Below, piece after piece: positions 8,306-58,538 of a DNA stretch of 64,000 bases; the first letter of the stretch is position 1, and each line of letters begins with the position of its first letter. Both the position numbers and the translations under genes were made by a program. Origin of the DNA: Chloroflexota bacterium (GTDB lineage Bacteria; Chloroflexota; Dehalococcoidia; E44-bin15); assembly GCA_034189655.1 (NCBI GenBank), contig JAXHUE010000001.1, positions 58,022-122,021 on the forward strand, read 5' to 3'. Under the pieces are notes generated by a model. That model had not been told where the DNA came from, did no database searches, and worked only from the letters and a program-made list of their open reading frames with translations.

Positions 8306-9091
8306 ATGGCGCTACCGAAGATATACGATACCCCCGCCGAAGCGGTGGCCGACATCCCCGACGGTGCCGTCATCATGTCGAGCGGTTTCGGCGGTGCCGG
8401 GGGCCGGCCGGTGCACCTCGCGGTCGCCCTCTCCGCGAGAGGGGTGAAGGACCTCACCATCATCGAGCAGACCATGGGTGTGCTCGGGCTCGACCTCTTA
8501 GGCACGCCGCTTGCCAACATGGCCGGCCTCAATGTCCCCCCAGACTACAAAGACCTGGTAGACCTGTATGTGAACAAGCAGGTGAAGAAGCTCATCACAC
8601 CCGTCATCCCCATAGCGGGGAACCCCACCATAGTGGAGGCCCTGAAAGAGATGATCGGGCTGGACGTAATGGAGATAGAGCTCCTCCCCCAGGGGACCTT
8701 CGCCGAGAGGATCAGGGCCGGGGGTGCGGGGATAAAGGGGTTCTTCACCGCGGTCAGTGCCGGCACCATCATCGGCGAGGGCAAGGAGACCAGGGTCATC
8801 GATGGCGAGCTGTGCGTCCTGGAGCCCCCGATGAGGGCGGACTACGCCCTGATACGTGCGTACAAGGCCGACAGGCTGGGCAACCTGATATACCGGGGGA
8901 CCTCTCGGAGCTACGGCCCCATCATGGCCACCGCTGCCGACGTGACCATCGTCGAGGTCGATGAGATCGTGGAGGTAGGGGAGCTCGACCCCGAGGTAGT
9001 GGTCACCCCCGGGATCTACGTCGACCGCATGGTAAAGGTGCCGCCACCTTTCTGGACCTACAACGAGCTGTGCATAAGGGGGGAGAGATGA
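8306..9091 (+). CDS. CoA transferase subunit A (3-oxoacid/glutaconate CoA-transferase, AtoD/ScoA-like)
   Basis: 261 aa with the SSGFGGAGGRP glycine-rich loop typical of the alpha subunit. Overlaps the next gene by ATGA. Confidence 0.85.
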   Translation: MALPKIYDTPAEAVADIPDGAVIMSSGFGGAGGRPVHLAVALSARGVKDLTIIEQTMGVLGLDLLGTPLANMAGLNVPPDYKDLVDLYVNKQVKKLITPVIPIAGNPTIVEALKEMIGLDVMEIELLPQGTFAERIRAGGAGIKGFFTAVSAGTIIGEGKETRVIDGELCVLEPPMRADYALIRAYKADRLGNLIYRGTSRSYGPIMATAADVTIVEVDEIVEVGELDPEVVVTPGIYVDRMVKVPPPFWTYNELCIRGER

Positions 9092-9801
9092 CCATCAGCG
9101 ATAAGCTGCGCGCCAAGTTCGAGGAGACCAGGCTGGACAACCTGGGGATCGGCATGAGGGTGGCCCAGGAGTTTCGAGACGGGGACTACGTGAACATAGG
9201 CTTCGGCATCCCCTCCTTCGCCCCCAGCTTCGTGCCCGAGGGCAGGACGGTGATACTGCAGGTAGAGAACGGGGTGCTCAACTGCGGGGGACTGGTCCCT
9301 GAAGAAAGCCCCCAGCTCATGGACCACGACCTCACCAATGCCGGCTTTCGCCCCATCCTCCCTCTCCCCGGCATGTCCTTCTTTGACAGTGCCCAGTCCT
9401 TCGCCATGATCCGCGGCGGCCACCTGGACGTGTCCGTGGTGGGGGCATTTCAGGTGACGGCAAAGGGCGACCTGGCAAGCTGGTCCAGGTACATGATAGG
9501 GGGCAAGTGGACCGGGATACTGGGGGGTGCAATGGAGGTGACCATTGCCAAGACGGTCGTCGTGGCCATGGAGCACATCAGCAGCGACGGGGAGTGCAAG
9601 ATCGTAAACAAGCTCACCCTGCCGCTCACCAGGAAGGCGTGCGTCGATATGATAATCACCGACGTAGCGGTGATGGAGGTAACCCCCAGCGGGCTTGTCC
9701 TCACAGAGGTCGCCCCCGGCTGGTCCGCCAAGCACGTGCAGGAGATCACCGAGCCCCAGCTCATCGTGAGCCCAGAGCTCAAGGAGATGCAGCTAGGCTA
9801 G
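9088..9801 (+). CDS. CoA transferase subunit B (AtoA/ScoB-like)
   Basis: Contains the catalytic-glutamate region and beta-subunit-like sequence (NIGFGIP, GGAMEV). Start at the ATG at 9088, coupled to the upstream stop. Confidence 0.85.
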   Translation: MTISDKLRAKFEETRLDNLGIGMRVAQEFRDGDYVNIGFGIPSFAPSFVPEGRTVILQVENGVLNCGGLVPEESPQLMDHDLTNAGFRPILPLPGMSFFDSAQSFAMIRGGHLDVSVVGAFQVTAKGDLASWSRYMIGGKWTGILGGAMEVTIAKTVVVAMEHISSDGECKIVNKLTLPLTRKACVDMIITDVAVMEVTPSGLVLTEVAPGWSAKHVQEITEPQLIVSPELKEMQLG

Positions 9802-9934
9802 AGAGAGCGCCCCCCTGTGTCGAGGATCGGGGGGCCGCACCCCTGCGGCCGCCACGCCAGACAGGCACCGTCCTTGACGCCTTGCCGCGGTATATGATAT
9901 TTTGTTATATTCGGCGGCAGAGAGCCCCAGGTGC

Positions 9935-9946
9935 ATGAGCGCTCAT
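9935..9946. promoter_or_regulatory. perfect 12-bp palindrome ATGAGCGCTCAT between candidate promoter and MaoC-like gene
   Basis: Seen directly. Lies about 30 nt upstream of the ATG at 9976 and downstream of TTGACG...ATATTT. Confidence 0.3.
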
Positions 9947-9975
9947 CGTGGCGATAGAAAGGGGATATACCACAA

Positions 9976-11241
9976 ATGGCAGAGAAGAAGGACTGGTCAC
10001 AGCACCCCAGAGTAACCGTCAGCGCGCGGGACAAGCTCCCGGAGCACACCCAGATAACCCCGGAGATGATAGAGCGGAGGAGGTCTCGCTCCAACAAGCC
10101 TTTCTACCCCGGCGGTGTCTACTACAACAAGCAGGCATCCCGGGACGCCGTCATCCACTTTACCAACGGCATAGGTGACACCAACCCCCTGTTCCGCAGC
10201 GAGGAGTACGCCAAGAAGAGCAAGTACCACGGCGTCATCGCACCAGGCAGCTTTCTCTACACCGTGATGTGGGTGGTCCCCGGCGGCGGCATGCCCGGGG
10301 TCCACGCCTGGTACAGCGGGGGCGACTGGGAGTGGTACCGCCCGGTGTACGCCGACGACCTGTTCACGCCCATCGGCGTGCTCAGGGACATCGATATAAA
10401 GAAAGGCCGCATGGCCGGCGGCGGCGACATCTACATCGACTACGACGAGGGCATCTACGTCAACCAGCGCGGGGAGATAGTGGGCAAGGAGCTCCACCAC
10501 ACCGTCTGGGCCGACAGGGGCTCTTCGGGCTCTGCCGGCAAGTACCGCGCCATCGAGCGGCCCAAATACTCAAGCGAGGAGTGGCTCAAGTTCCTCGAGA
10601 TGTACGACAACGAGGAGCTGCGGGGCGCGGAGCCCAGGTGGTGGGAGAACGTCCAGGAGGGCGACCAGGTGGGGCCCATGATCAAGGGGCCGCTCACCGT
10701 GCGCGACGAGATCGCCTGGCTCATGGGGGCGGGCTCGCCCTTCTTCCGCGCCCACAAGATCGAGTTCGAGTTCGAGCGGCGCCACCCCCGTGCCCTCGAG
10801 TACGTGGAAGAGATGGACGAGGCCGATGTCCCGGAGCTGGTGCACATCTTCGATGCCTACGCCCGCGCCATCGGCGTGGAGCGCGCCTACGACTACGGCT
10901 CGCAGCGGATGAGCTGGCTGTGCAACCTGTTCACCAACTGGATGGGCGACGACGCCTTCCTGTGGAAGATGAGCGGCGACGAGCGGGCCTTCAACCAGAT
11001 GGGCGACGTCACCACCTTCGAGGGGCGCGTGGTCAAGAAGTACATCGACGACGGCAAGTGCTGCGTCGATATCGAGGCCTGGGCCAAGAACCAGCGCGAC
11101 GAGTGGTCCATGCCGCCACGCACCTCGACGGTGATCCTGCCCTCCAAGGAGCACGGGCCGGTGGTCTACCCCAACCCGCCGCAGGCGCTGGTGGAGGAGG
11201 TGAGCCAGGCCCGGCCACTGGACGAGGTGAGGGACAGGTAG
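9976..11241 (+). CDS. MaoC-like double hotdog-fold (R)-specific enoyl-CoA hydratase/dehydratase
   Basis: 421 aa with two hotdog halves. The N-terminal half lacks the catalytic residues and the C-terminal half is MaoC-like, an arrangement like mesaconyl-CoA / 3-hydroxyacyl hydratases. Confidence 0.7.
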   Translation: MAEKKDWSQHPRVTVSARDKLPEHTQITPEMIERRRSRSNKPFYPGGVYYNKQASRDAVIHFTNGIGDTNPLFRSEEYAKKSKYHGVIAPGSFLYTVMWVVPGGGMPGVHAWYSGGDWEWYRPVYADDLFTPIGVLRDIDIKKGRMAGGGDIYIDYDEGIYVNQRGEIVGKELHHTVWADRGSSGSAGKYRAIERPKYSSEEWLKFLEMYDNEELRGAEPRWWENVQEGDQVGPMIKGPLTVRDEIAWLMGAGSPFFRAHKIEFEFERRHPRALEYVEEMDEADVPELVHIFDAYARAIGVERAYDYGSQRMSWLCNLFTNWMGDDAFLWKMSGDERAFNQMGDVTTFEGRVVKKYIDDGKCCVDIEAWAKNQRDEWSMPPRTSTVILPSKEHGPVVYPNPPQALVEEVSQARPLDEVRDR

Positions 11242-11347: not shown

Positions 11348-12496
11348 CTACGGGAGCTCCCACTCGTACGTCGCGAGGGCGTCTGACTGCGCCTGTAGCT
11401 GGAGCTCGGCCTCCACGTCACCCTTCAGGTACCTCAAGAAGAAGGCCGAGCCGTAGTCCGCTATCGCCCCGACGCGCTTATCGGAGGCGGTGCACTGCGG
11501 TATGTAATCGTAGCCCAGGCACGGCGCGTTGCCGAAGGTGAGGTGGCCGCTCTGCGCCAGCACGAGGTAGAACTTGGGGGGGCATGCACCCTCGTAGACC
11601 ACCCCCCGCTGGATGTCGGGCCGTATCAGCGGCAGGTCGTGGTCGCCGTGCATCACCATGAGGGGGATATCGATGTCGCCCGCGCCGTCCTCAAAGGGGT
11701 AGACCGGCGATGACAGGAGCAGCGCCGCCTCGATGCGCTCGTCCCTCATCGCCTCATCGGGATGGCCCCCGATGAGGCCCAGCGTGGTGAGGCCGCCCAG
11801 GGAGTGCCCCGCCATGCCGATGGACTCCTCGTCTACTATGCCGTAGAGTGGTGACGCGCTGTCCTGGTCCAGCGCCACCACCTGGTCGAGCACGAAGCGG
11901 CACTTGCTCAGCCTCACCTCCTCCATGTAGGCGAGGAAGATGTCCCGGTGCTCCTCCATCATGTCTGCGAACTGTGCCACCGCCTCCAGGACGTCCCCGG
12001 CGTCGGTGACCCCCTCGCTCCCCCTCGTCCGGTTGAAGGCTACCTGCTCTATGAAATCGGGGGGGACGGTATCGATGTAGTCGGGGGCAGCGACGATGAA
12101 GCCCTCGCCCGCCAGGCGCTCGGCGAAGGGGAGGGCGCTTATCCCGCTCGCGTACGCCCCGTGGTTGAAGACCACCAGTGGATAGGGCCCGTCCTCCGTG
12201 CAGGGGAGGGCCTCCCAGGCCACGCTGCTGGTGTAGCCATTGTTGTAGGTATAGGTGGCTGGCTCCTCCTCCGTCGGGTACCATATGGCCGTGGTGAGCA
12301 CCACCTCCTCGGCACCGCCGTCGCTGTAGCTGAAGTCGCAGATGGTGAAGCCCACGTTGTAGGTAGAGGGGACCGCCCCCAACGGCGGGGGGCAGCAGGC
12401 GCAGCAGGCCATCGCAATGGAGCCCGCCATCGCCACACACCACCCCAGGTACCGCCGCAGCGGCCAGCGCACTATGCCCATCAGTGTCCCCGCCAT
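11348..12496 (-). CDS. alpha/beta-hydrolase (GHSLGG serine hydrolase), probable secreted/lipoprotein
   Basis: GHSLGG nucleophile elbow, downstream Asp/His region. The N-terminus has a signal-like segment with a possible lipobox (SIAMAC). Start chosen at an internal Met. The upstream part of the track ORF is probably not translated. Confidence 0.7.
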   Translation of the reverse strand: MAGTLMGIVRWPLRRYLGWCVAMAGSIAMACCACCPPPLGAVPSTYNVGFTICDFSYSDGGAEEVVLTTAIWYPTEEEPATYTYNNGYTSSVAWEALPCTEDGPYPLVVFNHGAYASGISALPFAERLAGEGFIVAAPDYIDTVPPDFIEQVAFNRTRGSEGVTDAGDVLEAVAQFADMMEEHRDIFLAYMEEVRLSKCRFVLDQVVALDQDSASPLYGIVDEESIGMAGHSLGGLTTLGLIGGHPDEAMRDERIEAALLLSSPVYPFEDGAGDIDIPLMVMHGDHDLPLIRPDIQRGVVYEGACPPKFYLVLAQSGHLTFGNAPCLGYDYIPQCTASDKRVGAIADYGSAFFLRYLKGDVEAELQLQAQSDALATYEWELP

Positions 12497-12675
12497 GGCA
12501 CCCCCCATCGATGCCGCGCACCCATACACTGCCATTGTATCACAGCACGAGGCACGGCGCCCTCTCCCGCTATGCGCTTGACAGCGTATCGGGCACAGGG
12601 TTACCATGGCCAGGGCCGGGGCACGGTCGCCAGAGAGTGACCGCCAGGGGAACGCCAGTGCGTGGAGGACCGGGA

Positions 12676-14307
12676 ATGACCGAAGACGAGACCCTGTGGG
12701 TGACAGACTCCGACATCGAGACCATAACCCTGCTCGGCACGACCATCGCCGACCGCTACAGGGTCGAGCACCTCCTGGGCGAAGGGGGCATGGGCTCCGT
12801 CTACCTGGCCACAGACCAGGTGCTGGAGAGGCAGGTCGCCATCAAGATAATGAAGGGCGGGCCCATGGCCGGCCAGAACACCACCCGCTTCTTCCGCGAG
12901 GCGCGCTCGCTGGCGCACCTAAACCACGCCAACATCGTCACCATCTACGACTACGGCTGGCACGGCGAGCAGGCCTACCTGGTGATGGAGTTCGCCACCG
13001 GCTCCACGCTGTCCGCCCTGCTGGAAGGGGGCGGCGGCCAGGCCCAGGGCCTCACCATGGGCCGGGCACTGGACATCGCCGTAGACGTGACCAGGGCGCT
13101 GGCCTACGCCCACGCCCAGGGGGTCATCCACCGCGATATCAAGCCCTCCAACATCATCATCGGCGCAGAGACCAAGCTCATGGACTTCGGCATCGCCAAG
13201 ATGCGCCAGGACCCCTCGATCACCATGTCGCCCGCCGGCATGGGCACCCCGGCCTACATGGCACCGGAGCAGGCACTGGGGAAGGAGGTGGACGAGCGCA
13301 CCGACCTCTACTCCCTGGGCATCGTCCTCTACGAGATGTTCACCGGCCGGCCCCCCTTCTCGGCGTGCGACGAGATGCCCCTGGTCTCACAGCACATCCA
13401 GGTAACCCCGGTCTCTCCGTGCCTGCGCAACCCCGATATCCCCAGGGACATCGAGCGCCTCATACTGAAGATGCTGGCCAAGACCCCCGACAGGCGCCCA
13501 GAGTCGGCCCAGGAGGTGCTCTCGGAGCTCGAGGCGTGCCGCCAGGGGCTGCCCACCGCCACGGTGCAGGAGGTGCCGGCGCGAAGGCGGGCCCGCCCCG
13601 TAGACGACCCAAGGACCGAGGCCCTGCGCGGCATACCGCTCTTCTCCTCCGTGCCCGGCGAAGACCTGGGCGAGCTCGCCCACCAGCTCACGGGGCGACG
13701 CTATCGCAAGGGCGACGTCATCTTCCACAAGGACGACTTCGGCTCCACGCTGCACATCGTGAAGAGCGGCAACGTCAAGATCAGCATCCCCTCCGAGGAG
13801 GGCGAAGACGTCATCCTGGCCTACCTGGGCGCCGGCGACTTCTTCGGGGAGCTGGCCCTGCTCGACGAGGAGCCGCGCTCGGCAACGGCGACCGCCGTCG
13901 AGGACACCGAGACCATGGCCCTGGAGCGGGGGGACTTCCTCCAGTTCCTCCGCTGGTACCCGGACACGGCCATCCGCATCCTCGCCGTGCTCTCGCAGCG
14001 GCTGCGAAACCTGAACTCCCAGCTTGAGAACCTCATCTTCTCCAACCCGCCGGCCCGCCTGGCAAAGACGCTGCTCAAGCTGATGGAGAGCCACGGCAGG
14101 GGGACACCTGAGGGGTGTGAGATATCGCTCCCGCTCACCGCGTCCGACCTCTCCGGGATGGTGGGGGCAAATGCGGCAACGGTGAGGCGCCTGCTGCGCG
14201 ACCTCCAGACGGCAGGGGTCATCAGCAGCAGCAAGGAGAGGCGCTACACCGTCCACAGGCCAGAGGAGCTGCGCGAGAGGGCACAGCGGGGCACCGGCCG
14301 CTGCTAG
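12676..14307 (+). CDS. Ser/Thr protein kinase fused to cyclic-nucleotide-binding domain and Crp-type HTH
   Basis: N-terminal Hanks kinase motifs (GEGGMGSVY, VAIK, HRDIKPSN, DFG, APE). These are followed by a cNMP-binding beta-roll (FGELALL) and a C-terminal Crp/Fnr HTH. RBS GGAGGA before the ATG at 12676. Confidence 0.8.
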   Translation: MTEDETLWVTDSDIETITLLGTTIADRYRVEHLLGEGGMGSVYLATDQVLERQVAIKIMKGGPMAGQNTTRFFREARSLAHLNHANIVTIYDYGWHGEQAYLVMEFATGSTLSALLEGGGGQAQGLTMGRALDIAVDVTRALAYAHAQGVIHRDIKPSNIIIGAETKLMDFGIAKMRQDPSITMSPAGMGTPAYMAPEQALGKEVDERTDLYSLGIVLYEMFTGRPPFSACDEMPLVSQHIQVTPVSPCLRNPDIPRDIERLILKMLAKTPDRRPESAQEVLSELEACRQGLPTATVQEVPARRRARPVDDPRTEALRGIPLFSSVPGEDLGELAHQLTGRRYRKGDVIFHKDDFGSTLHIVKSGNVKISIPSEEGEDVILAYLGAGDFFGELALLDEEPRSATATAVEDTETMALERGDFLQFLRWYPDTAIRILAVLSQRLRNLNSQLENLIFSNPPARLAKTLLKLMESHGRGTPEGCEISLPLTASDLSGMVGANAATVRRLLRDLQTAGVISSSKERRYTVHRPEELRERAQRGTGRC

Positions 14308-14317
14308 CAGCACGCCG

Positions 14318-15577
14318 CTACGGGGCCAGGGCCACCCGCTCCACCTGGGGCTCCACCACCACGCCGTAGGTGGCCCGTGCATAGGTGAAGGAGGCCATGC
14401 CCTCGTCGCCGCCGTAGAAGGTGGCCACCATGTTGGCGGGCTCACCGCTGCGAGCGCCCTCGCCGCGGTCGGCCTGGACCTGGGCATTGAACAGCTCGCG
14501 GGCCAGGTAGTCCACGGCAAAGGGGTTGCGTCCTACCAGGAAGCCGATGTCCGACACGATGGGCCTCTGGACGACATCGACACAGTCGCAGAGCTGGGTG
14601 ATGCGGTACAGATGGGCCACGTTGATGAGGCCGTTCCACCTGCCGTTCATCTCCGCCATCAGGAAGTCCACCAGGCGGTAGGGGATGGCGGCCTCGCCCC
14701 AGACCCAGTCATCGGTGTGTATGGTCACGATCTCGATGCAGTCGGCCTGGAGCTTGCATATGGAGGCGCACTCCCCGCAGCCGATGCACCGCTCCACGAT
14801 GAGCGTGGGGACATCACCCTTGGCCCAGACAAGGGCCTGCTCGGGGCAGCTCTTGGCGCACTTGCCACACCTGGTGCAGGCCTCCTCATCGATGCGGGGC
14901 TGGAGCAGCTTGTGCAGGAGCAGCTTCCCCCTCACGCTGCCGCCGCCCATGGTGAGCGTCTTCACCGCCATGGCGAAGTGGGTGAGCTGGTGCAAAGTGA
15001 GGTGGGAGTGACTCACGATGGTGGGGGCAGCAGCGATGCCGCCGGCCACGTATACCTCCCGGTACTTGCCCACCCTGCTCACCACCACCTCCTCTTCGTC
15101 GAACTCGAACACGCCGGGGACGGAGGTCGCCGGCCTGTCGAGGACGACGAACGGGAGGCCGAGCCCCTCGCCGTGGTGCCACCCGTGGGCCCGGGCCAGC
15201 TCCATGTACTTGCTGGCATCGGCCGGTGGGTTCTGGCGATGGCCCCTGGGCCCGGAGTAGACCGTGGTGGTGTCGCCGGCAACCACCCTGGTCACCCCTT
15301 TGTCTCTCAAGAAGTCAACGGTGGAGAGGGCGAACTCCGGGACCATCCTGGTATCGCACTTCGCCTCGCCGATGTGGCACTTCACCACCGCCGGCCCCTC
15401 GACTCGCCGTATATCCAGGGCGTGGAGCATCTCCTTTAAGCTGCGGTTTATCCTGTCCCTCACCGCGCCGTCGTCTAAGTCCAGGCCCTGTCCCCTGATG
15501 TCCAGGAAGTATACCGGAGACCTCTCGTTCTCTCCCTCGCGGTACTTGAGCCACCGCGGGACTTTCAATCGCGCCAC
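14318..15577 (-). CDS. DUF362-domain protein with inserted 2x[4Fe-4S] ferredoxin domain
   Basis: Ferredoxin motifs CTRCGKCAKSCP and CIGCGECASIC within a DUF362-like scaffold. GTG start at 15577 preceded by AAGGAGGG. The 230-aa Arg/Pro/Gly-rich N-terminal extension in the track ORF was rejected. Confidence 0.7.
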   Translation of the reverse strand: MARLKVPRWLKYREGENERSPVYFLDIRGQGLDLDDGAVRDRINRSLKEMLHALDIRRVEGPAVVKCHIGEAKCDTRMVPEFALSTVDFLRDKGVTRVVAGDTTTVYSGPRGHRQNPPADASKYMELARAHGWHHGEGLGLPFVVLDRPATSVPGVFEFDEEEVVVSRVGKYREVYVAGGIAAAPTIVSHSHLTLHQLTHFAMAVKTLTMGGGSVRGKLLLHKLLQPRIDEEACTRCGKCAKSCPEQALVWAKGDVPTLIVERCIGCGECASICKLQADCIEIVTIHTDDWVWGEAAIPYRLVDFLMAEMNGRWNGLINVAHLYRITQLCDCVDVVQRPIVSDIGFLVGRNPFAVDYLARELFNAQVQADRGEGARSGEPANMVATFYGGDEGMASFTYARATYGVVVEPQVERVALAP

Positions 15578-15699
15578 TTCTCCCTCCTTTTCGAGCTGCC
15601 GATGCCATGGCCCCAAACGCGACCACCCCCCACCCACCACGCAGAGATACGCGTGACACCGTGGTGGTACAGGTACAGTGGTGGCCCGCGGCGAGGACG

Positions 15700-17697
15700 C
15701 TACGGGACGATAGTGCGGCGCCGGCCCGCTATGTAGTCGTGCACCATGTAGCGCCCCAGCTCTTCCGCAGACGTATAGAATGCCCGCCCGCGGCAGCCCT
15801 TGACCAGGTCGTCGATGAACCTGGAGATGTAGGGGTCGCTGTCCAGCATGAAGACGTTGACCACGATGCCGTCGCTGGCACAGCGCTTTGCCTCGCGCAG
15901 GGTCTCGATGAGGGTGCGCGGGCTCGGCGGGTAATCGAAGTAGGCCCTCCCCCCCTCCAGGTGAGCGGTGGGCTCGCCGTCGGTCACCATTATTATCTGC
16001 TTGCTCCCCCCCTTGTGCCTGGAGAGCAGTTGCCGCGCCAGCATGAGCCCGTGGTGCATGTTGGTGCCGTAGACAAACTCGTTCCAGTTGACGTCGAACA
16101 GCATCTCCTTGGTGAGCTCGGTGGCGTAGTCGGAGAAGCCCACGATGTACAGGTTGTCGCGGGGGAACTGGGTGCGGATGAGGCTGTCTAAGGCCAGCGC
16201 CACCTTCTTGGCGGCGAAGAAGTTGCCCCGCATCGGCATCGACCAGCTCATGTCGAGCATCAGCACCGTGGAGCACTGGGTGAGGTGCTCCGTCTGGTAG
16301 ACCTCGAAGTCCTCCTCCTTGAGCCGCACCGGCCTGCCCGGGCCCTCCCGCTTGAGCGAGTTCATCAGCGTCCTCTCCACCTGGAGGTGGAACGGGTCGC
16401 CAAACTGGTATCTCTTGGTCTCATCGGCGCGGTCGCCGCCCAGGCCGCTGGCCCACACCTCGTGCCTGCCCAGCCGCCACTCCTTGAGGTGTTTGAAGAT
16501 ATCCTTGAGCGCCTTCTCCCCTACCCTTCGCACCGCCCTAGGGGTGAGCTCCCAGCGCCGGCCCCGCCTGCTGATGTAGCCCGCCTCCTCCAGCACGTCG
16601 GCGAGGCGCCTCATCTGCTCAAGCGAGCGGTGGGCCTCCTCGCCCAGCAGGCGGCGCACCAGCTCATCGTCTATCCCCTCCAGGTCGGGGCCGGAGCGGC
16701 TCCTGTCGAGCTGCCGCTCAAGCTCGCCCATCTGCTGGAGCTCCTCCATGAGCCCCAAGGCCTCCTCCAGCGAGAGCGACTCGACGCCGCGGAAGGGGTA
16801 CCGCGACCGTAAGTCCCCCGTGGGGAAGAGCAGGTCCAGGTAGGCGGCGAGCTCGGCCATCTGGTCCCTTAGTCCCTGGTCCTCCATCATGGCCTCCACC
16901 AGCTCGTCGAGCATCCCCTTCTGCTCCTGGGGAAGGCTCTCCAGGAGGGACTCCATCTGGGCCATCCTGCGGGTGAGCATCTCCATGAGCTCATCGAGGC
17001 TACGTGGCCGCTCCGGCCCGAACTGGTCGCCGAAGCGCTCCATGAAGCCCTCGAAGTCGGGCTCGCCGCCCTGGATGCGCTGGCGCAGCATCTCGTTCAA
17101 GGCCCCGACCATGTCCTTGAGGCCCTGTATGTCCTCGGCGCTCATTGCCTGGAGGCCGCGGTACATGTCCTGGAAGTACTGCCCCATCACCCGCTCTTTG
17201 AGCATCTCCATGAGCTCTGCGAACTGCTGGCGTGCCTGGGGGTCGATGAACTCGTAGCTCGCCAGCCCCTTTATCGCCGCCGCGACGTCCTCGGGCAGGC
17301 CATCGAGGAACTCCAGGTTCCGTGCCGCCACGCTCTCCAGGGCCTTCCGCAGGTCGGCATCCTGCTCCCCGGCCTCTTCGAGGCGGCGCTCGATGCCCTC
17401 TCGCTCCGTGCTCACGATGTCATCTAATCGCTCGCGGATATCGTCGAATATGGAGCTCAAGTCGTACCTGTCCAGGGTGCGCCGCTTCATGGCGCGCAGC
17501 TCCTGGAGCATGTCGCGTATGCCCATGAGCCTCTGCCCCTGCCAGTCCCCGAGGCCGAGCTGGAGCAGCCTCTGCAGCGCCTGGCGCACATCCCCGTTCA
17601 TGGTGAGGCTATCGGCGATGGCGTCCATGACGGCGTCGGCGTCCAAGTCGGGGACGTCCTGGCTTCCGTCCCAGCGTGAGTATCGGTAGACCGCCAT
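15700..17697 (-). CDS. von Willebrand factor A (VWA) domain protein with long acidic/coiled N-terminal region
   Basis: C-terminal VWA with MIDAS motif (LMLDMSWSM, VTDGEPT). The ~450-aa N-terminus is rich in E/R/L/M. Start ATG overlaps the stop of the upstream AAA+ gene (TAGCATG). Confidence 0.8.
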   Translation of the reverse strand: MAVYRYSRWDGSQDVPDLDADAVMDAIADSLTMNGDVRQALQRLLQLGLGDWQGQRLMGIRDMLQELRAMKRRTLDRYDLSSIFDDIRERLDDIVSTEREGIERRLEEAGEQDADLRKALESVAARNLEFLDGLPEDVAAAIKGLASYEFIDPQARQQFAELMEMLKERVMGQYFQDMYRGLQAMSAEDIQGLKDMVGALNEMLRQRIQGGEPDFEGFMERFGDQFGPERPRSLDELMEMLTRRMAQMESLLESLPQEQKGMLDELVEAMMEDQGLRDQMAELAAYLDLLFPTGDLRSRYPFRGVESLSLEEALGLMEELQQMGELERQLDRSRSGPDLEGIDDELVRRLLGEEAHRSLEQMRRLADVLEEAGYISRRGRRWELTPRAVRRVGEKALKDIFKHLKEWRLGRHEVWASGLGGDRADETKRYQFGDPFHLQVERTLMNSLKREGPGRPVRLKEEDFEVYQTEHLTQCSTVLMLDMSWSMPMRGNFFAAKKVALALDSLIRTQFPRDNLYIVGFSDYATELTKEMLFDVNWNEFVYGTNMHHGLMLARQLLSRHKGGSKQIIMVTDGEPTAHLEGGRAYFDYPPSPRTLIETLREAKRCASDGIVVNVFMLDSDPYISRFIDDLVKGCRGRAFYTSAEELGRYMVHDYIAGRRRTIVP

Positions 17698-19450: not shown

Positions 19451-20455
19451 ATGAAGTGGAAGACCAGGGTCACCGACATCCTGGGCAGTACCTACCCCAT
19501 AATCCAGGGGGCCTACGGCGGGTTCGGCACCTCGGCCATCGCGGCGCCGGTCTCGGCCGCGGGTGGGTTCGGCATCATCACCGCCGGGGCGCTCAGGACG
19601 CCGGAGCTGCTGCGCGAGGACATCAAGAGGGCGCGCTCCATGACTGACCAGCCCTTCGGGGTGAACCTGAGCATCGGGCTGTGCCCCCAGATAGACGAGA
19701 TGCGGGAGGTGGCCATCGAGGAGAGGGTGCCCGTCATCTTCACCGCGGCCTACCGCGCCGATGACCACGGCAAGAGGATACAGGAGGCCGGGCTCAAGTG
19801 GGTGCACAAGGTGGCAACGGTGCACCACGCCCTCGCCGCCGAGCGCCAGGGGGCCGACGCCGTGGTCATCGTGGGCCTGGAGGGGGCGGGCTTCAAGAAC
19901 ATAAGCCAGCTCCCCACGCTCATCGCCATCACCACTGCCACCAGGATGATGAAGGTGCCGCTCATCGCCGCCGGGGGCATCGGTGACGGCCACGGCTTCT
20001 TGAGCGCGCTCGCCATGGGGGCCGAGGGTGTCTACCTGGGCACCGCCTTCATGGCCACCAAGGAGTGCCCCATCTCCGACCGCTACAAGCAGACCCTGGT
20101 CGACGGCCAGCCGTGGGAGCCCGCCTTCCGCGACCGGGCGCTGGCCCCGCCCAAGCAAGAGGAGTACCAGAAGGTGATGAAGGAGAAGGACAACGTGCCT
20201 ACCAGCCAGTGGCTTCAGCGGCTGGAGCTGGTGCTGCTCAAGGAGTCGCCCGATACCGCCATCGACTGGGAGAACGCCCTCCAGGACTGGGACCCTGAAG
20301 TCGCGGTGAGGCTGAGCGGCGGCTCGCTCGCGGTGGGCGTCATCGACAGGGTGATGACGGTGAAGGAGCTCATCGACTGCATGGTAGCGGACGCCGAGGC
20401 GATCCTGCGCCGGGAGGGCACGCTGGGCCGCATATCGACCACCGACGCCCCGTGA
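19451..20455 (+). CDS. nitronate monooxygenase / FabK-like FMN-dependent enoyl reductase family
   Basis: NMO (2-nitropropane dioxygenase) TIM-barrel signature (GGFG...AAGGIGDG). Start at second Met, with the GAGGAGG RBS inside the track ORF N-terminus. Confidence 0.8.
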   Translation: MKWKTRVTDILGSTYPIIQGAYGGFGTSAIAAPVSAAGGFGIITAGALRTPELLREDIKRARSMTDQPFGVNLSIGLCPQIDEMREVAIEERVPVIFTAAYRADDHGKRIQEAGLKWVHKVATVHHALAAERQGADAVVIVGLEGAGFKNISQLPTLIAITTATRMMKVPLIAAGGIGDGHGFLSALAMGAEGVYLGTAFMATKECPISDRYKQTLVDGQPWEPAFRDRALAPPKQEEYQKVMKEKDNVPTSQWLQRLELVLLKESPDTAIDWENALQDWDPEVAVRLSGGSLAVGVIDRVMTVKELIDCMVADAEAILRREGTLGRISTTDAP

Positions 20456-20560
20456 GCCCTCGAGGCGACGAGGGGCGCGAGGTGCCGCCCATCCTTGCAC
20501 CACCCCACCCATTTCTGTATACTTGCCAGGCAGCATAATCTATCCATCGGGAGGACTTTA

Positions 20561-21403
20561 ATGACAAAGGCCATCGACTACTGGATCAACCCCTTCACGC
20601 CGGAGTTCATGAAGAGGTGCTGGGTCGACGAGCCCGAGTTCGCCACCATGACCGGCGGCAAGCTGCTGGGGCGCTTCGAGGGCTACTCCGTAGACGAGTT
20701 CGTCAAGGTGCTCGACGAGTGCGAGGTGGAGAAGTGCTTCATCCCCTCGTGGAAGATGTTCTCCTTCAAGCGCAAGGAGCCGATGTGGAGCTTCTCCGTG
20801 GAGGAGATCGCCGCCCTGGTCTCCCAGCGCCCCGACAGGCTCGCCGGCCTGTGCGGCATAAACCCCTACGCCCGCATGGACGGCGTGCGCGAGCTGGAGC
20901 GCGCGGTGAAGGAGTACGGCTTCGTCGGCGCCCACCTCCACCCCTTCGGCTACGAGCGGCCGGTGAACCACCGCGACTACTACCCCTTCTACACCAAGTG
21001 CGTCGAGCTCGACGTGCCGGTGGTGATGCAGATAGGGCACTCCCTGGAGATGATGCCCAACGAGATGGGTCGCCCCATCCACCTGGAGGACATCCTGCTC
21101 TACTTCCCCGACCTCCGCGTGGTGGCCGGCCACACCGGCTGGCCCTGGGTGGAGGAGCTCATCTCGCTCTCGCTCGTCTACCGCAACCTGTACATCGGCA
21201 CCACGGCCCACGCCCCCAAGTACTGGGACCCCGCCCTGGTCCAGTACCTGAATAGCAGGGGCATCGGCAGGGTGATGTGGGGCACCGACTGGCCCGTCGT
21301 CGACCACAAGACCAGCCGCGAGCAGGTGGAGGCGCTCAACCTGAAAGACCAGGCCAAGGAGCAGCTCTTCCGAGAGGTGGCGGTCAGTGTCTTCAAGCTA
21401 TAA
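20561..21403 (+). CDS. amidohydrolase-2 family metal-dependent hydrolase (ACMSD-like TIM barrel)
   Basis: Amidohydrolase_2-like conserved His/Asp positions (HLHPF, GHTGWPW, GTDWP). Start at the ATG at 20561 after GGGAGGA. Confidence 0.75.
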   Translation: MTKAIDYWINPFTPEFMKRCWVDEPEFATMTGGKLLGRFEGYSVDEFVKVLDECEVEKCFIPSWKMFSFKRKEPMWSFSVEEIAALVSQRPDRLAGLCGINPYARMDGVRELERAVKEYGFVGAHLHPFGYERPVNHRDYYPFYTKCVELDVPVVMQIGHSLEMMPNEMGRPIHLEDILLYFPDLRVVAGHTGWPWVEELISLSLVYRNLYIGTTAHAPKYWDPALVQYLNSRGIGRVMWGTDWPVVDHKTSREQVEALNLKDQAKEQLFREVAVSVFKL

Positions 21404-21442
21404 TTCAGGGCGGGCCCGCGGTCCGCTCACAGGGGGTTGGTC

Positions 21443-22171
21443 ATGAGCTATGAGAATATCATCGTGGAGAAGGCAGAAGGCTGTGCCCGGGTGACCCTCA
21501 ACCGTCCCCAGGTGAAGAACTGCCTGAACACCCAGACCCTCACCGAGCTTGAGCGCGCCTTCGACGACATCGAGAGGGACGGCGAGGTAAAGGTGGCGGT
21601 GCTCACCGGCTCGGGCGGCGCCTTCTGCTCCGGCGCCGACCTGAAGGAGCTACGGGGGCTCGACCCCGACCGCTTCGCCACCTTCATCCGCCTCTTCCAC
21701 CGCGTGTGCAACAAGATAGAGGGCCTGCAGAAGCCGGTCATCGCCGCCATAAACGCCGTCACGCTTGCCGGCGGCCTGGAGGTGGCCATGTCGTGCGACT
21801 TGAGGGTGGCCGCCGAGGACGCCCAGCTTGGGGACCACCACGCCAACTTCGGTGGCATACCCGGCGGCGGCGGCACGCAGCGCCTGCCCCGCCTGGTGGG
21901 CATGGGCCGGGCCAAGGATATTCTGCTCACCGGCAGGTGGCTCGACGCCAGGGAGGCGGAGCGCATCGGCCTGGTGAACCGGGTGGCCCCCGCGGGCAAG
22001 CTGGACGAGACCGTGGCAGAGCTGGTGCAGAGCCTGGTCTCCAAGAGCCCGGCCTCCATGAGCGCCATCAAGGGGCTGGTAAACCACGGCATGCAGACCG
22101 ATATCGCCACCGGGCTGGAGCTGGAGATACTGGCCATCACCCAGCGGCCCTTCGGCAGCCCCGGCGGCTGA
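21443..22171 (+). CDS. enoyl-CoA hydratase/isomerase (crotonase family)
   Basis: Crotonase fold (GSGGAFCSGADL, AAINAVTLAGG). Second crotonase paralog in the window. Confidence 0.85.
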   Translation: MSYENIIVEKAEGCARVTLNRPQVKNCLNTQTLTELERAFDDIERDGEVKVAVLTGSGGAFCSGADLKELRGLDPDRFATFIRLFHRVCNKIEGLQKPVIAAINAVTLAGGLEVAMSCDLRVAAEDAQLGDHHANFGGIPGGGGTQRLPRLVGMGRAKDILLTGRWLDAREAERIGLVNRVAPAGKLDETVAELVQSLVSKSPASMSAIKGLVNHGMQTDIATGLELEILAITQRPFGSPGG

Positions 22172-22210
22172 CCCACCCTGTGCCGTCCGCGGGCACCACA
22201 GGATATAAAG

Positions 22211-23232: not shown

Positions 23233-23970
23233 CTAGAGCAGTGGGAAGTAGTTCACCCTTATGAACGAGAAGTTCTGTTTTACCTTGTCGCCGCCCTTGA
23301 GGATGCCCCCGTACTCGGTGCTGTGACCGGGGAGCAGGTACTCGATGTCCAGCTCGGAGAGCCTCTCTATGCTCTGCCTCAGCAGCTTCCCGTCCCCGCC
23401 GGGGATATCGGTGCGGCCAATGCCCCCGTAGAATACCACGTCGCCCGATATCAGCACCTTGCCCTCGGGCCAGTAGATGCTTATCGACCCTGGGGAGTGC
23501 CCCGGTGTGTGCATGATGCGCAGGCTCAGCCTGCCCTCCTTGCCCAGGTTGAGCTCACCCTCCCGTAAGTAGAAGTCGGGCTCGAAGTCCACGTTGCGCC
23601 CCAGCACCCTGGCCATCATCTCCCCCAGCTTCTGCCGGTATGCCTCTTCCGCCTCGTGTATGGCAACGAGGGCACGGCCCGTCCCGCCATCCCCCGCTGT
23701 CCTCTCTACCACGGCGGTGCTGGCCTCGCAGTGGTCGGGGTGAGCGTGTGTGTTTATGACCAGCCCCACATCCTCCACCTTGAGGCCGTCCCGCGCCATG
23801 GCGGCAACGAGCCCCTCGAAGCAATGCTCGCCCACCTCGTTGTCCACGTGCCCGGGGTCTACGAGCACGTGTGGCTTCTCGCCACGGAGGACGCTGGCGA
23901 AGAGATAGCTGTGGGAGTTGTTCCCCTTCCCCTCCCACATGTAGCTGTAGAGGTCGTCCACCAGTCTCAT
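23233..23970 (-). CDS. MBL-fold metallo-hydrolase
   Basis: HxHxDH motif (THAHPDH) and downstream His/Asp ligands (HTPGHSPGS, GD, H). Start set at the Met with AGGAG RBS. Confidence 0.8.
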   Translation of the reverse strand: MRLVDDLYSYMWEGKGNNSHSYLFASVLRGEKPHVLVDPGHVDNEVGEHCFEGLVAAMARDGLKVEDVGLVINTHAHPDHCEASTAVVERTAGDGGTGRALVAIHEAEEAYRQKLGEMMARVLGRNVDFEPDFYLREGELNLGKEGRLSLRIMHTPGHSPGSISIYWPEGKVLISGDVVFYGGIGRTDIPGGDGKLLRQSIERLSELDIEYLLPGHSTEYGGILKGGDKVKQNFSFIRVNYFPLL

Positions 23971-24021
23971 ACCGCTCCTGTCTAAAACGCGCTCCCGCGG
24001 GCGCAAGGACGCCGGGCGACC

Positions 24022-24050
24022 TTTGCCCACGGCCCAATACATAGTATAAT
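24022..24050 (+). promoter_or_regulatory. candidate promoter TTTGCC-N17-TATAAT
   Basis: TATAAT at 24045..24050, about 50 nt before the ATG at 24101. Weak -35. Confidence 0.35.
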
Positions 24051-57900: not shown

Positions 57901-58170
57901 ATGCTCTCCTCGCCGGGCACAGGCGCCCCTCCCAGTCTCCCCGTCGATTGTACCTCATTAGTGCCTGTGGCGGCAACCAAAGCCCCCGTCCACACCGTAA
58001 AACACCGGTACAGGCACCCGCCAAAGTATACCTCTCGCAGTGCGGAAGGACACACCGCCCACGCCCCCGCGGCCCAGCGCTGGCCGCCCACTAGTACCTA
58101 GGTACAATGGTGAAGTGCCCTATCGGCCATGGCAAAAATAGGGCCAAGGTTCAATGTATTATACATAACA

Positions 58171-58188
58171 TTGTGATACCATTCACAC
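58171..58188. promoter_or_regulatory. TTGTGAt-ACCA-TTCACAc palindrome (perfect TGTGA-N6-TCACA core), candidate Rex/CRP-family operator
   Basis: Seen directly in an unusually AT-rich stretch 30-45 nt upstream of the first ORF of the NuoE/NuoF/FdhA operon. 12/14 match to the Rex consensus TTGTGAA-N4-TTCACAA. Confidence 0.5.
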
Positions 58189-58201
58189 GGAGACACAGAA
58201 A

Positions 58202-58522
58202 ATGAGGGGGAAAAGGATGGGTTCGTTGACCAACACCAGCGCGAGAGACCCGGCACACACAACAGGGCCGGCCATTGTCCAGGCCCCCCAGGGAAAGGAG
58301 GCAGTGCTCGAGGTGCTGAAAAGGGCTGCAGAGGAGAACGAGTTCATGGCCCGGCTGGCCGATGACCCCAATGAGGCCCTCCACGAGTACTACACGCTCA
58401 CCATGGAGGAGAAGGCCGCCCTCGCCAGCGGCGACATCAAGAAGATCGAGAGCTGGGTGGGCAAGCTCGACAGGCAGCTCGCAACCTGGCTCTGGCACCG
58501 CTTAAGCCAGGAAAAGTGGTAA
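58202..58522 (+). CDS. small protein of unknown function sharing a conserved ~50-aa module with the FdhA C-terminal extension
   Basis: ORF with RBS (GGAGA, or GAGGGGG for the alternative ATG at 58217). Its C-terminal two thirds align at about 55% identity with FdhA residues encoded at 63830..64000 (shared ...EEKAALASGDI[KR][KR]IESW.G...). Confidence 0.6.
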   Translation: MRGKRMGSLTNTSARDPAHTTGPAIVQAPQGKEAVLEVLKRAAEENEFMARLADDPNEALHEYYTLTMEEKAALASGDIKKIESWVGKLDRQLATWLWHRLSQEKW

Positions 58523-58538
58523 AGAGGAGTATATCGAC

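Follow-up and report, generated by a model that had tools for sequence, protein, structure and literature searches.

A PknB-type Ser/Thr kinase fused to a Crp-type cyclic-nucleotide-binding and DNA-binding module in Chloroflexota

Bacterial Hanks-type kinases normally reach transcription through separate substrates, and cAMP normally acts through a stand-alone CRP. A precedent in trans is known from Myxococcus xanthus, where MrpC, a Crp/Fnr homologue, receives phosphates from the Hanks kinase Pkn14 on both its cNMP domain and its DNA-binding domain, and this phosphorylation has been proposed to modulate DNA binding (10.1101/737593). In that system, MrpC with the Pkn8/Pkn14 cascade, kinase and regulator are separate proteins, whereas in the fusion protein described here they are covalently joined. 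To our knowledge, the signal of MrpC is not known to be a cNMP.

Eukaryotic PKG has CNB and kinase on one polypeptide, as the fusion protein does. However, in our protein the kinase comes first and is PknB-like rather than AGC, there is a single CNB and no conserved pseudosubstrate, and a DNA-binding domain, absent from PKG and PKA, is present. Thus, the PKA/PKG arrangement of a CNB N-terminal to an AGC kinase with an autoinhibitory segment was not found. Mycobacterial Pat (Rv0998/MSMEG_5458) is another example of a bacterial CNB domain joined to a protein-modifying enzyme, and the CNB region of the fusion scored 49.8 bits against the Pat model NF058543. The Pat enzyme, however, is a GNAT acetyltransferase without a DNA-binding domain, while the fusion protein combines a kinase with an HTH.

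The two halves have their nearest counterparts in different families. The catalytic domain has all catalytic motifs of the PknB/PknA/Stk1-type Hanks kinases (PknB PDB 1mru, 1o6y) and is 38% identical to M. tuberculosis PknB both by sequence and by fold (TM-score 0.78-0.88, normalised to PknB). Stk1/PknB receptors carry a transmembrane helix and an extracellular PASTA sensor, both absent from the fusion protein, and the model of this receptor architecture (NF033483) gave 316 bits against a cut-off of 450 and covered the kinase part only. Unlike PknB, the fusion has as its "sensor" an intracellular CNB domain, which is followed by a DNA-binding domain. The C-terminal half has the barrel, C-helix and wHTH in the same order as the CRPs (Mtb CRP Rv3676, C. 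glutamicum GlxR, T. thermophilus Crp, 7pza) and shares their conserved phosphate-binding cassette, with 29-33% identity to the solved structures (E = 1e-27 to 1e-31). It differs from them in the N-terminal extension of roughly 316 aa, made up of kinase plus linker, and in having Ala-Ala for Arg-Glu. The sequence-only reading knew of no characterised kinase-Crp fusion, and we too found no description of one in full-text literature searches or in term look-ups within surveys of prokaryotic kinase domain architectures. The architecture is uncharacterised; its component domains are individually well understood.

The gene lies in a 64-kb stretch of DNA that was analysed as a whole (the window). Its features, with coordinates in the window, are as follows.

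12578..12607, + strand: candidate sigma-70-like promoter TTGACA-18 nt-TACCAT (consensus scan, 10/12 matches; consensus match only)
12664..12669, + strand: Shine-Dalgarno GGAGGA, 6 nt 5' of the ATG (read from sequence)
12676..14307, + strand: complete CDS of the kinase-CNB-wHTH fusion protein, 543 aa plus stop
12676..12756, + strand: family-specific N-terminal extension, aa 1-27 (alignment, 51% mean pairwise identity)
12757..13521, + strand: Hanks/PknB-type Ser/Thr kinase domain, aa 28-282 (Pfam PF00069)
13183..13269, + strand: activation segment DFG...APE, aa 170-198 (phmmer alignment to PknB 1mru)
13522..13623, + strand: linker with Arg/Pro-rich patch PARRRARP, aa 283-316 (alignment)
13624..13959, + strand: cyclic-nucleotide-binding beta-barrel domain, aa 317-428 (Pfam PF00027)
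13840..13884, + strand: phosphate-binding cassette FFGELALLDEEPRSA, aa 389-403 (alignment, family and Mtb CRP)
13960..14046, + strand: long central C-helix, aa 429-457 (AF2 helix 429-455; aligns to Mtb CRP C-helix)
14047..14289, + strand: Crp-type winged helix-turn-helix, aa 458-538 (Pfam PF13545; AF2)
14173..14211, + strand: recognition helix AATVRRLLRDLQT, aa 500-512 (alignment to Mtb and T. thermophilus CRPs)

The open reading frame is continuous, with no frameshift and no internal stop. The likely true start is the ATG at 12676 rather than the upstream GTG at 12484, judging from the Shine-Dalgarno sequence, the promoter-like site and the length of the homologues, all of which have 532-548 aa. 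The family comprises 22 full-length homologues with 49-76% identity, and a profile search of 1.84 billion representatives yielded a single full-length 50%-identity cluster. The same three-domain order was found in 21 further 90%-clusters. Other assemblies (NCBI, ENA, Logan) contribute six more 543-aa sequences to the window protein's own 90% cluster, whose representative, P0001, differs from the window protein by a single residue, G319C. The kinase and Crp parts had been read from the sequence as one polypeptide, with a hidden frameshift or stop between them as the obvious danger. The single uninterrupted frame and the constant domain order in homologues bear this reading out, and the independent copies indicate that the fusion is not an assembly artefact. 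That neighbouring genes were joined by a sequencing or assembly error, or that the kinase is a degenerate pseudokinase, is thus highly improbable: nothing was found in favour of it, and the continuous frame, the 532-548-aa architecture in 22 clusters from independent samples and sources, and the invariance of every kinase catalytic residue rule it out.

The kinase-Crp family is small and its architecture is rare. All named homologues come from Chloroflexota/Dehalococcoidales MAGs and are annotated merely as "protein kinase". The JGI members, most of them on short contigs, were covered by the protein search. A scan of genome contigs with the full-length alignment and the generic peptides KLMDFGIA and GGMG[ST]VYLA gave ordinary kinases and one kinase-CNB protein (L014, see below) among the matches listed.

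Domain annotation placed three domains well over the Pfam thresholds: Pkinase (PF00069) at aa 28-282 (E=1.1e-53, 182.8 bits, cut-off 31.7), cNMP_binding (PF00027) at aa 341-426 (E=7.1e-26, 90.5 bits, cut-off 27.5) and HTH_Crp_2 (PF13545) at aa 460-534 (E=1.5e-15, 57.3 bits, cut-off 27). The motifs on which the first description of the protein relied were all found: GEGGMG at 35-40, VAIK at 54-57, HRDIKPSN at 152-159, DFG at 170-172, APE at 196-198, the Arg/Pro linker PARRRARP, and FGELALL at 390-396. The N-terminal extension has the consensus MxEDExxWxMDxELQxLxMxGxxIADRY, and its first 17 residues have low pLDDT. Mean pairwise identity is 63% for the kinase, 63% for the CNB domain and 46-58% for the HTH and C-helix, and purifying selection acts on both halves, kinase and Crp, at similar constraint. 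The linker of about 34 aa is variable in sequence (27%), while its length varies by only about 2 aa across the family. The AF2 model is confident within the domains, but the linker has pLDDT of about 56-63 and the pTM is 0.66, so the inter-domain geometry of the model is uninformative. A search for a hydrophobic segment (membrane helix) found no 19-mer above 1.35 on the Kyte-Doolittle scale, and on the best reading the protein would be soluble and cytoplasmic.

How well preserved is the kinase? The Hanks catalytic set is complete, with G-loop, VAIK Lys, alphaC Glu, HRD Asp, catalytic-loop Lys/Asn, DFG and APE, and the subdomain IX Asp (D210) and subdomain XI Arg (R274) are also present, in agreement with the PknB alignment. 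Invariant in the 22 homologues are G35/G37/G38, K57, E75, D154, K156, N159 and D170-F171-G172, as well as T191, P197-E198, D210 and R274. The loss of a catalytic residue on careful alignment, which would have spoken against a working kinase, was seen neither among the homologues nor against PknB, and the domain is apparently active. Residues conserved in the fusion also appear to occupy the N-lobe dimer-contact and activation-loop Thr positions of PknB. In the alignment, the Arg in PknB "DRY" falls opposite R27, the "RLHR" Leu opposite L50 and the "VYDTG" Asp opposite D92; we take these three PknB residues to be the back-to-back dimer contacts R10, L33 and D76. R27 and L50 are invariant across the kinase-Crp family. 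T185 and S187 align with the second and first Thr before PknB "AAVIG", the two Thr of "SVTQT", presumably the phospho-acceptors T171/T173, and most family members keep S/T in the stretch around them. However, P0014 and P0017 have HCD in place of HRD, so some members may lack control through the activation loop. The linker patch RRRAR was considered as a PKA-like pseudosubstrate, but this reading was dropped because the patch is not conserved. It also counted against it that a preference for basic substrates is not known for PknB-like kinases.

In the Crp half, the cassette residues F389, F390, G391, E392, R401, S402 and A403 (FFGE...PRSA) are invariant in the family and align with the Gly-Glu...Arg-Thr/Ser cassette of Mtb CRP. 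The complete CRP-like effector domain claimed from the sequence is thus present, with its PF00027 match and canonical cassette. The nearest solved relatives of this part are cAMP- or cAMP/cGMP-binding CRPs: 7pza (which we take to be S. meliloti Clr), 4ev0 (T. thermophilus Crp), Mtb CRP and GlxR. The C-helix is by analogy a putative dimerisation helix. At the Thr-Asn positions of the Mtb CRP C-helix, presumably the purine-contacting pair (T127/S128 in E. coli CRP), the alignment gives Leu-Asn in this family. The C-terminal winged HTH was recovered both as the PF13545 match and in the AF2 model, which has helices at 458-473, 489-496 and 500-512 plus a beta-wing.

The recognition helix is not that of classical CRPs. 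The CRP Arg180/Glu181 pair reads the TGTGA motif. Where Mtb CRP ("GASRETVNK") and T. thermophilus Crp ("GTSRETVSR") have Arg-Glu, the fusion has A500/A501, and these positions vary among family members; the R505 position, which we take to correspond to E. coli CRP Arg185, is R or K in 15/22. The R-E-x-x-x-R helix of the CRP subfamily is therefore missing, and the CRP equivalog NF008732 scored 91 bits, below its cut-off of 266. A TGTGA-N6-TCACA site at 58172 had been put forward as a possible target. The window contains one match with at most one mismatch where 1.09 are expected, and 66/100 shuffles do as well; with this chance-level count and without the Arg-Glu pair, the site is not a supported target. 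Perfect 5-N(2-10)-5 palindromes in 15 upstream regions from 11 loci gave no operator shared by more than one locus, as in shuffles, and no inverted repeat was found within 12440-12720. With a non-canonical, varying recognition helix and no common palindrome, DNA binding and autoregulation have no motif evidence in their favour.

The Crp module also occurs with another partner. In KaiC-like ATPase-Crp fusions, which are uncharacterised proteins of the same phylum (P0037, P0041, P0055), an N-terminal ATP-binding domain is likewise followed by CNB and HTH, and the Crp module is 58-69% identical to the kinase-fused one. They differ in having a KaiC/RecA-like ATPase and no Hanks kinase, in that their gene is the last of a three-gene KaiC-like operon, and in being far commoner among the matches listed. 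An NJ tree (without support values) places the KaiC-fused modules in a single clade inside the kinase-fused set, with a stand-alone Crp lying far off. Only one conserved column separates the two groups, I369 versus L. No Ser/Thr column is conserved specifically in the kinase-fused modules: the conserved S357, T358, S402, T411, T413 and T488 are all common to the KaiC-fused ones. No candidate intramolecular phosphosite came out of this comparison, and the Crp part shows no sequence sign of a dedicated phospho-acceptor. A further group, represented by P0112 (447 aa, 35% identical to the window protein) and the 423-aa ORF in locus L014 of a Proteobacteria MAG (32% identical over query residues 27-417), consists of a Hanks kinase with a cNMP-binding domain at the C-terminal end. 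In contrast to the kinase-Crp proteins they have no C-helix or HTH and belong to other lineages; they are likewise uncharacterised.

The genomic neighbourhood differs between the window and the relatives. No FHA or PP2C domain was called from about 5 kb upstream to 10 kb downstream of the fusion gene, and tblastn with the partner proteins of the relatives detected no PP2C-like or class III cyclase-like gene in the 64-kb window. The window also contains no second kinase or Crp module and no phosphodiesterase partner. The sequence-only reading, which saw no FHA or PP2C partner nearby, was thus right for this window but does not extend to the relatives, where a PP2C gene lies directly upstream on the same strand in 5/11 loci (P0021, P0008, P0019, P0020, P0018). 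Three relatives (P0011, P0008 and P0019) adjoin a class III cyclase-AAA16-TPR gene, a CNB-only protein and MBL genes, and the P0021 and P0018 loci have MBL genes alone, without cyclase or CNB-only gene. The MBL genes are Apyc1-like or class-II-PDE-like, so that cyclase, MBL/class-II phosphodiesterase-like and CNB-only genes lie near the fusion in 3-5 of the relatives' loci. The cyclase is predicted to be of the adenylate-cyclase type: at the K-F-x-G-D position the one in locus L087 carries Lys and the guanylate cyclase Cya2 carries Glu. Around P0017, P0016, P0006 and P0013, neither PP2C nor a cyclase or phosphodiesterase partner was detected. The family as a whole has a recurrent genomic association with PP2C and cNMP-turnover genes.

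Taken at about even odds (a probability near 0.5), our main reading is that of a soluble dimeric regulator which senses a cNMP and carries a kinase, i.e., a two-input one-component transcription factor. In it, a complete CRP-type module would carry a PknB-type kinase at its N-terminus, the two being connected by the near-fixed linker of about 34 aa. By homology with CRP, the C-helix would form a homodimer and hold the two kinase domains together. cAMP or another 3',5'-cNMP would bind the phosphate-binding cassette and cause a CRP-type rearrangement to a DNA-competent HTH, a step suggested by the invariant ligand residues and by the cyclase and phosphodiesterase genes beside relatives. The kinases would be activated as in PknB, by back-to-back dimerisation of the N-lobes and trans-autophosphorylation at T185/S187, and reset by PP2C, as the conserved residues and the PP2C genes directly upstream in relatives suggest. 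Phospho-state and cNMP-state would then jointly set promoter occupancy, and other proteins may also be phosphorylated. We infer the functional coupling of phosphorylation, cNMP and DNA binding and, likewise, its direction, that is, which of the two signals, cNMP or phosphorylation, controls the other.

Phosphorylation might itself be the main output, with the CNB gating a PKG-like cNMP-dependent kinase and the HTH mainly localising it near substrates at DNA such as RNA polymerase, nucleoid proteins or other regulators. This possibility seems somewhat unlikely to us. The kinase-CNB proteins P0112 and L014 are a precedent for it, since without an HTH their CNB can act on the kinase only; the CNB domains of apicomplexan PKGs match that of the fusion at about 95-100 bits, the linker joins the CNB at its N-terminal helix with near-constant length, which fits allosteric coupling, and the Crp module has no kinase-specific phospho-acceptor column. 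However, the domain order is reversed relative to PKG/PKA, the kinase is not of the AGC group, the basic patch RRRAR is not conserved, and selection has held the C-helix and HTH at 46-58% identity, which suggests that DNA binding is probably more than a tether. A stronger form, in which the cNMP places the protein on operators and switches on the kinase for promoter-local phosphorylation, is doubtful, as is its corollary that RNA polymerase, nucleoid proteins or neighbouring regulators are the targets at promoters. If true, such a DNA-tethered cNMP-gated Ser/Thr kinase would be a bacterial counterpart of eukaryotic promoter-bound signalling kinases and a prokaryotic cNMP-dependent kinase of origin independent of PKA/PKG, and the KaiC-like-Crp fusions would define a wider Chloroflexota class of enzymes delivered to DNA by a Crp module.

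The likeness to the KaiC-fused modules, with the same domain order, 58-69% identity, nested position in the tree and the single I369/L difference, raises the question of whether an ATP-dependent switch or oligomerisation module of interchangeable kind makes up the N-terminal part. Such a module would gate the specialised Crp module generically, by steric occlusion or assembly state and with no specific phosphosite, and kinase and KaiC-like ATPase would be alternative solutions. We consider this unlikely. The tree has no support values, and the domain swap may have gone either way. CRP is dimeric whereas KaiC-like domains are usually hexameric, which leaves room for quite different modes of action in the two fusions, and the fully conserved catalytic residues together with the PP2C linkage argue for true phosphotransfer in the kinase version. 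Haem, Fe-S clusters, 2-oxoglutarate or chlorophenols serve as signals for many Crp/Fnr members, and an effector other than a cyclic nucleotide, and/or an HTH that does not bind DNA, would agree with the variable recognition helix without the CRP Arg-Glu pair, with the Leu-Asn in the C-helix and with the absence of a cyclase-like gene from the window. But the G-E...R-S-A cassette, which has typically decayed in Crp/Fnr members lacking a nucleotide ligand, is invariant here, and cyclase, class-II-PDE-like and CNB-only genes cluster with several relatives, which makes this alternative very unlikely.

As a two-input transcription factor, the fusion could link cAMP and phosphorylation signals directly to gene control. 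It offers a compact system for asking how Ser/Thr phosphorylation addresses a transcription factor, whether a cyclic nucleotide can control a bacterial kinase, and how one protein combines two second-messenger logics. Linked at operon level in relatives to PP2C, adenylate-cyclase-type and phosphodiesterase-like genes, the fusion may belong to a self-contained signalling module of poorly studied, uncultured Chloroflexota/Dehalococcoidia. The sister fusion with a KaiC-like ATPase suggests that ATP-dependent switches can be mounted on this Crp module as a reusable DNA-binding chassis. With modular, individually well-understood parts, these hypotheses are directly testable with recombinant protein.

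Some neighbouring genes were considered as conserved partners and rejected. Fer4 proteins beside P0017 and P0021 are only 29% identical to each other, and all that the DUF362-Fer4 protein of the window has in common with them is the ferredoxin motif. Another gene set aside is the MBL gene at 23235-24044, 9 kb from the fusion gene, which shares only 30% identity with the MBL neighbour of P0011. An Rfam scan of the whole 64-kb window gave no RNA family. The convergence of the fusion gene with a DUF362 ferredoxin-domain gene, noticed from the sequence, was found again: the DUF362+4Fe-4S gene lies at 14318-15616 on the minus strand, with 10 nt between the two stop codons.

The sequence-only reading had taken positions 12676-14307 (+) for a Hanks-type kinase fused to a cNMP-binding domain and a Crp-type HTH in one polypeptide, and this was borne out. 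The ORF is uninterrupted (543 codons plus stop), every motif it had quoted is present, and each of the three Pfam domains scores far above its curated cut-off. In NCBIfam the kinase part is PknB/Stk1-like and the remainder CRP-like, both below equivalog cut-offs.

12578-12607, promoter-like site TTGACA-18-TACCAT, upstream of the kinase-Crp gene
6 nt 5′ of the ATG at 12676, GGAGGA
aa 28-282, Pkinase (Pfam, E = 1.1e-53)
aa 341-426, cNMP_binding (Pfam, E = 7.1e-26)
aa 460-534, HTH_Crp_2 (Pfam, E = 1.5e-15)

A longer version with a GTG start at 12484 is mechanically possible. The ATG at 12676 appears to be the better start because of the GGAGGA, the promoter-like site and the length of the homologues, all of 532-548 aa. 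A lone 5-7-5 palindrome, ATACA-CTGCCAT-TGTAT, lies 5′ of the promoter-like site (12523-12541); as an operator it was set aside, being absent from every relative's upstream region compared.

How widespread is this architecture? Kinase-Crp is a real gene family and no artefact. Among 5.8 billion protein clusters searched, the cluster representative P0001 differed from the window protein in a single residue (G319C). Its 90% cluster has six more 543-aa members from different assemblies, and MDY6906672.1 ("protein kinase [Chloroflexota bacterium]", NCBI, 122-kb contig) belongs to it. The same search gave 21 more clusters with the identical three-domain order at 49-76% identity. Those with names are labelled "protein kinase" and come from Chloroflexota or Dehalococcoidales, and one member is encoded in CP070842.1, a complete genome of 2.3 Mb. 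A profile built from the 22 family sequences was run against 1.84 billion 50%-identity representatives. Besides a fragment, a single one matched at full length (P0012, at 902 bits over profile positions 2-541), the remaining top matches being multi-kinase or multi-CNB giants. This argues for a narrow family, as judged from the listed scores; distant, independently arisen fusions could exist at lower scores.

The kinase domain shares 38% identity with PknB of M. tuberculosis, in the sequence as well as in the fold comparison. Residues K57, E75, D154, K156, N159, D170-F-G, T191, P197-E198, D210 and R274 are invariant in the alignment of 22 sequences, and that the protein is an artefact or a pseudokinase seems to us extremely improbable. 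In the alignment to PknB, R27 corresponds to the Arg of "DRY", L50 to the Leu of "RLHR" and D92 to the Asp of "VYDTG", which we take to be R10, L33 and D76, contacts of the back-to-back dimer; R27 and L50 are invariant across the family. T185 and S187 lie opposite both Thr of "SVTQT", presumably T171 and T173, which accept phosphate in the activation loop. Two of the 22 members (P0014 and P0017, one of them from the Dehalococcoidales genome CP070842.1) have HCD in place of HRD at the column of R153 in the catalytic loop, as in non-RD kinases, a hint that dependence on activation-loop phosphorylation may vary within the family. The kinase half conforms to the PknB-like Hanks kinases except in receptor architecture: no transmembrane segment was found in the protein, and the PASTA domain is absent. 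A conserved 27-aa extension precedes the kinase domain, and the linker (aa 283-316) is almost constant in length with a mean identity of only 27%. The mean identities of the kinase (63%), CNB (63%), C-helix (58%) and HTH (46%) place both halves under comparable purifying selection.

The C-terminal half conforms to the CRP/FNR family, apart from lacking the CRP-type recognition helix and the stand-alone size, without being an orthologue of E. coli CRP. Among solved structures it is closest to CRPs that bind cyclic nucleotides (7pza, T. thermophilus Crp, Mtb CRP and GlxR, E = 1e-27 to 1e-31), and the phosphate-binding cassette FFGE...PRSA is invariant among the 22 sequences; a ligand other than a nucleotide is unlikely. 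The AF2 model (pLDDT 78.9, pTM 0.66) predicts a barrel and a winged HTH with a C-helix of 27 residues between them; confidence in the linker is low. No PDB chain spanning both halves was found. The recognition helix, GAN-AATVRRLLRDL, has Ala-Ala where the "RETV" motif of the Mtb and T. thermophilus CRPs has Arg-Glu, and these positions vary among kinase-Crp members. In E. coli CRP, Arg180 and Glu181 read TGTGA.

Genomic context was compared for 11 distinct family members. The absence of a PP2C partner, as first read, holds for the window: tblastn with the relatives' partner proteins found no PP2C-like or class III cyclase-like gene in the 64 kb. It does not hold for the relatives, 5 of the 11 of which (P0021, P0008, P0019, P0020, P0018) have a PP2C gene immediately 5′ in the same orientation. 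Near some members there is also a compact cNMP gene set with CNB-only proteins of 128-149 aa, two MBL-fold genes and a STAND-type cyclase.

L087:5425-11872, compact cNMP gene set (P0011 locus)
L089:472-5531, compact cNMP gene set
L090:8274-10659, compact cNMP gene set

At P0011 the genes follow 3′ in the order CNB-only protein, ODP/Apyc1-like MBL-fold protein, class-II-PDE MBL-fold protein (which exceeds Pfam's class-II cAMP-phosphodiesterase threshold) and, last, a class III cyclase-AAA16-TPR protein of 1365 aa. P0008 has a cyclase of the same type and a stand-alone Crp nearby, and P0019 a cyclase fragment, two MBL-fold genes, a CNB-only protein and a GAF-HD protein. In alignments, the P0011-linked cyclase has Lys in its K-F-x-G-D motif, where Glu stands in the guanylate cyclase Cya2 and Lys in the form of Cya2 engineered into an adenylate cyclase; we take this Lys to be adenylate-type. 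No PP2C, cyclase, MBL-fold or CNB-only partner was found at the P0017, P0016, P0006 and P0013 loci.

The Crp half also shares 58-69% identity with the C-terminal half of a set of Chloroflexota proteins, about 477 aa long, that begin with a KaiC/RecA-like ATPase domain. This architecture (PF06745, cNMP_binding, HTH_Crp_2) matches kinase-Crp in order and is abundant in Chloroflexota.

L092:849-4820, KaiC-Crp locus
P0029, P0037, P0041 and P0046-P0096, KaiC-Crp protein hits
L014:7986-9257, kinase with C-terminal cNMP-binding domain and without HTH, 423 aa, Proteobacteria MAG
P0112, kinase with C-terminal cNMP-binding domain and without HTH, 447 aa

In L092 and a 33-kb JGI contig, KaiC-Crp (479 aa) ends a three-gene operon after a KaiC-like protein (~250 aa) and a KaiC-like protein with V4R (579 aa). 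When the Crp modules were placed in a neighbour-joining tree, drawn without support values, the KaiC-fused modules formed a single clade nested among the kinase-fused ones, and both lay far from a stand-alone Crp. Only one conserved column separates the two groups, and none with Ser/Thr sets the kinase-fused modules apart. One specialised Crp module has thus been paired with two different domains, each of which uses ATP and autophosphorylates. No description of KaiC-Crp was found in the literature searched. The two proteins without HTH belong to other lineages and are candidate bacterial cNMP-regulated kinases, apparently uncharacterised.

We propose, with a probability of about 0.5, that kinase-Crp is a soluble CRP-type dimeric sensor of a 3′,5′-cyclic nucleotide, most likely cAMP, with an active PknB-type kinase. 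With the C-helix as dimer interface, two kinase domains would meet and trans-autophosphorylate as in PknB, PP2C would reset them, and cNMP state and phospho-state would jointly control DNA binding. Architecture, conserved residues and gene associations are observed; dimerization, ligand, activity, DNA target and the direction of coupling we infer. Phosphorylation of other proteins may be a second output. The main rival, possible though considerably less probable, makes phosphorylation the chief output of a PKG-like, cNMP-gated kinase brought to DNA. Kinase-Crp lies outside the PKA/PKG family because its domain order is reversed, its kinase is non-AGC and a pseudosubstrate is not conserved, though it may work like them. 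A third view, drawn from the exchange between kinase and KaiC-like domains on the same Crp module, takes the N-terminal domain for a generic ATP-dependent switch that gates Crp without a dedicated phosphosite; we consider this rather doubtful.

The nearest functional precedent is in Myxococcus, where the Hanks kinase Pkn14 phosphorylates the Crp/Fnr regulator MrpC in its cNMP and DNA-binding domains (10.1101/737593); there the two are separate proteins, whereas kinase-Crp is one chain. Two surveys of prokaryotic kinase domain architectures mention no cNMP, Crp or HTH partners; a 2024 survey lists CNB among the partner domains of kinases, with no mention of HTH or DNA-binding ones. Full-text searches with the three Pfam names together or related terms found no kinase-Crp fusion. 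The modules are each well known and their combination is undescribed; public databases carry the protein as "protein kinase", a name that says little about it. Domain shuffling is common in bacterial signalling, yet a catalytically intact kinase in one chain with an intact cNMP-sensing transcription factor, together with the operon-linked PP2C, cyclase and phosphodiesterase genes of relatives and the parallel KaiC fusion, makes an attractive, readily testable system.

In the window itself, convergence with a DUF362 ferredoxin-domain gene was confirmed. No second kinase or Crp module was found in the 64 kb, and an Rfam scan of 1-64000 gave no family at gathering score (no tRNA, rRNA or riboswitch).

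8306-11241 and 19452-22172, CoA-transferases, MaoC-like dehydratase, nitronate monooxygenase-like, amidohydrolase_2 and enoyl-CoA hydratase genes, with CoA-transferase and MaoC-like genes upstream of kinase-Crp
11348-12496 (-), alpha/beta-hydrolase, divergent from kinase-Crp
14318-15616 (-), convergent DUF362 + 4Fe-4S (ferredoxin) gene, 3′ neighbour of kinase-Crp
15700-17697 (-), VWA/Mb0984-helical/Rv0959-like protein, 665 aa
17699-19099 (-), AAA_5 (MoxR-like) ATPase, 466 aa
58155-58167, ATGTAT-T-ATACAT palindrome in the AT-rich intergenic region 58102-58538
58172-58187, exact CRP-like box TGTGATACCATTCACA in the same region

Acyl-CoA metabolism genes are abundant around kinase-Crp, with no regulatory link shown, and two relatives' loci (L003, L005) also have many CoA-transferase and acyl-CoA dehydrogenase genes. 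The hydrolase and kinase-Crp genes have a 179-bp intergenic region in common. The hydrolase has faint Pfam matches, to PAF-AH/PETase only. The longer mechanical ORF 11348-12607 has a Cys-rich, hydrophobic N-terminus (…AMACCACCPPPLGA…), and the called start may omit part of this N-terminus; the product may be a secreted protein or a lipoprotein esterase. The VWA and AAA_5 genes, just past the DUF362-ferredoxin gene, are a typical MoxR-VWA chaperone-like pair, which is not kept beside other family members.

The TGTGA-N6-TCACA site had been suggested as a kinase-Crp target. This is unsupported, as such boxes occur in the window at chance level and the recognition helix is mismatched. Both palindromes lie upstream of ORFs starting at about 58218 and about 58539 (+), and the CRP-like box may be a site of another Crp/Fnr regulator in the same genome.
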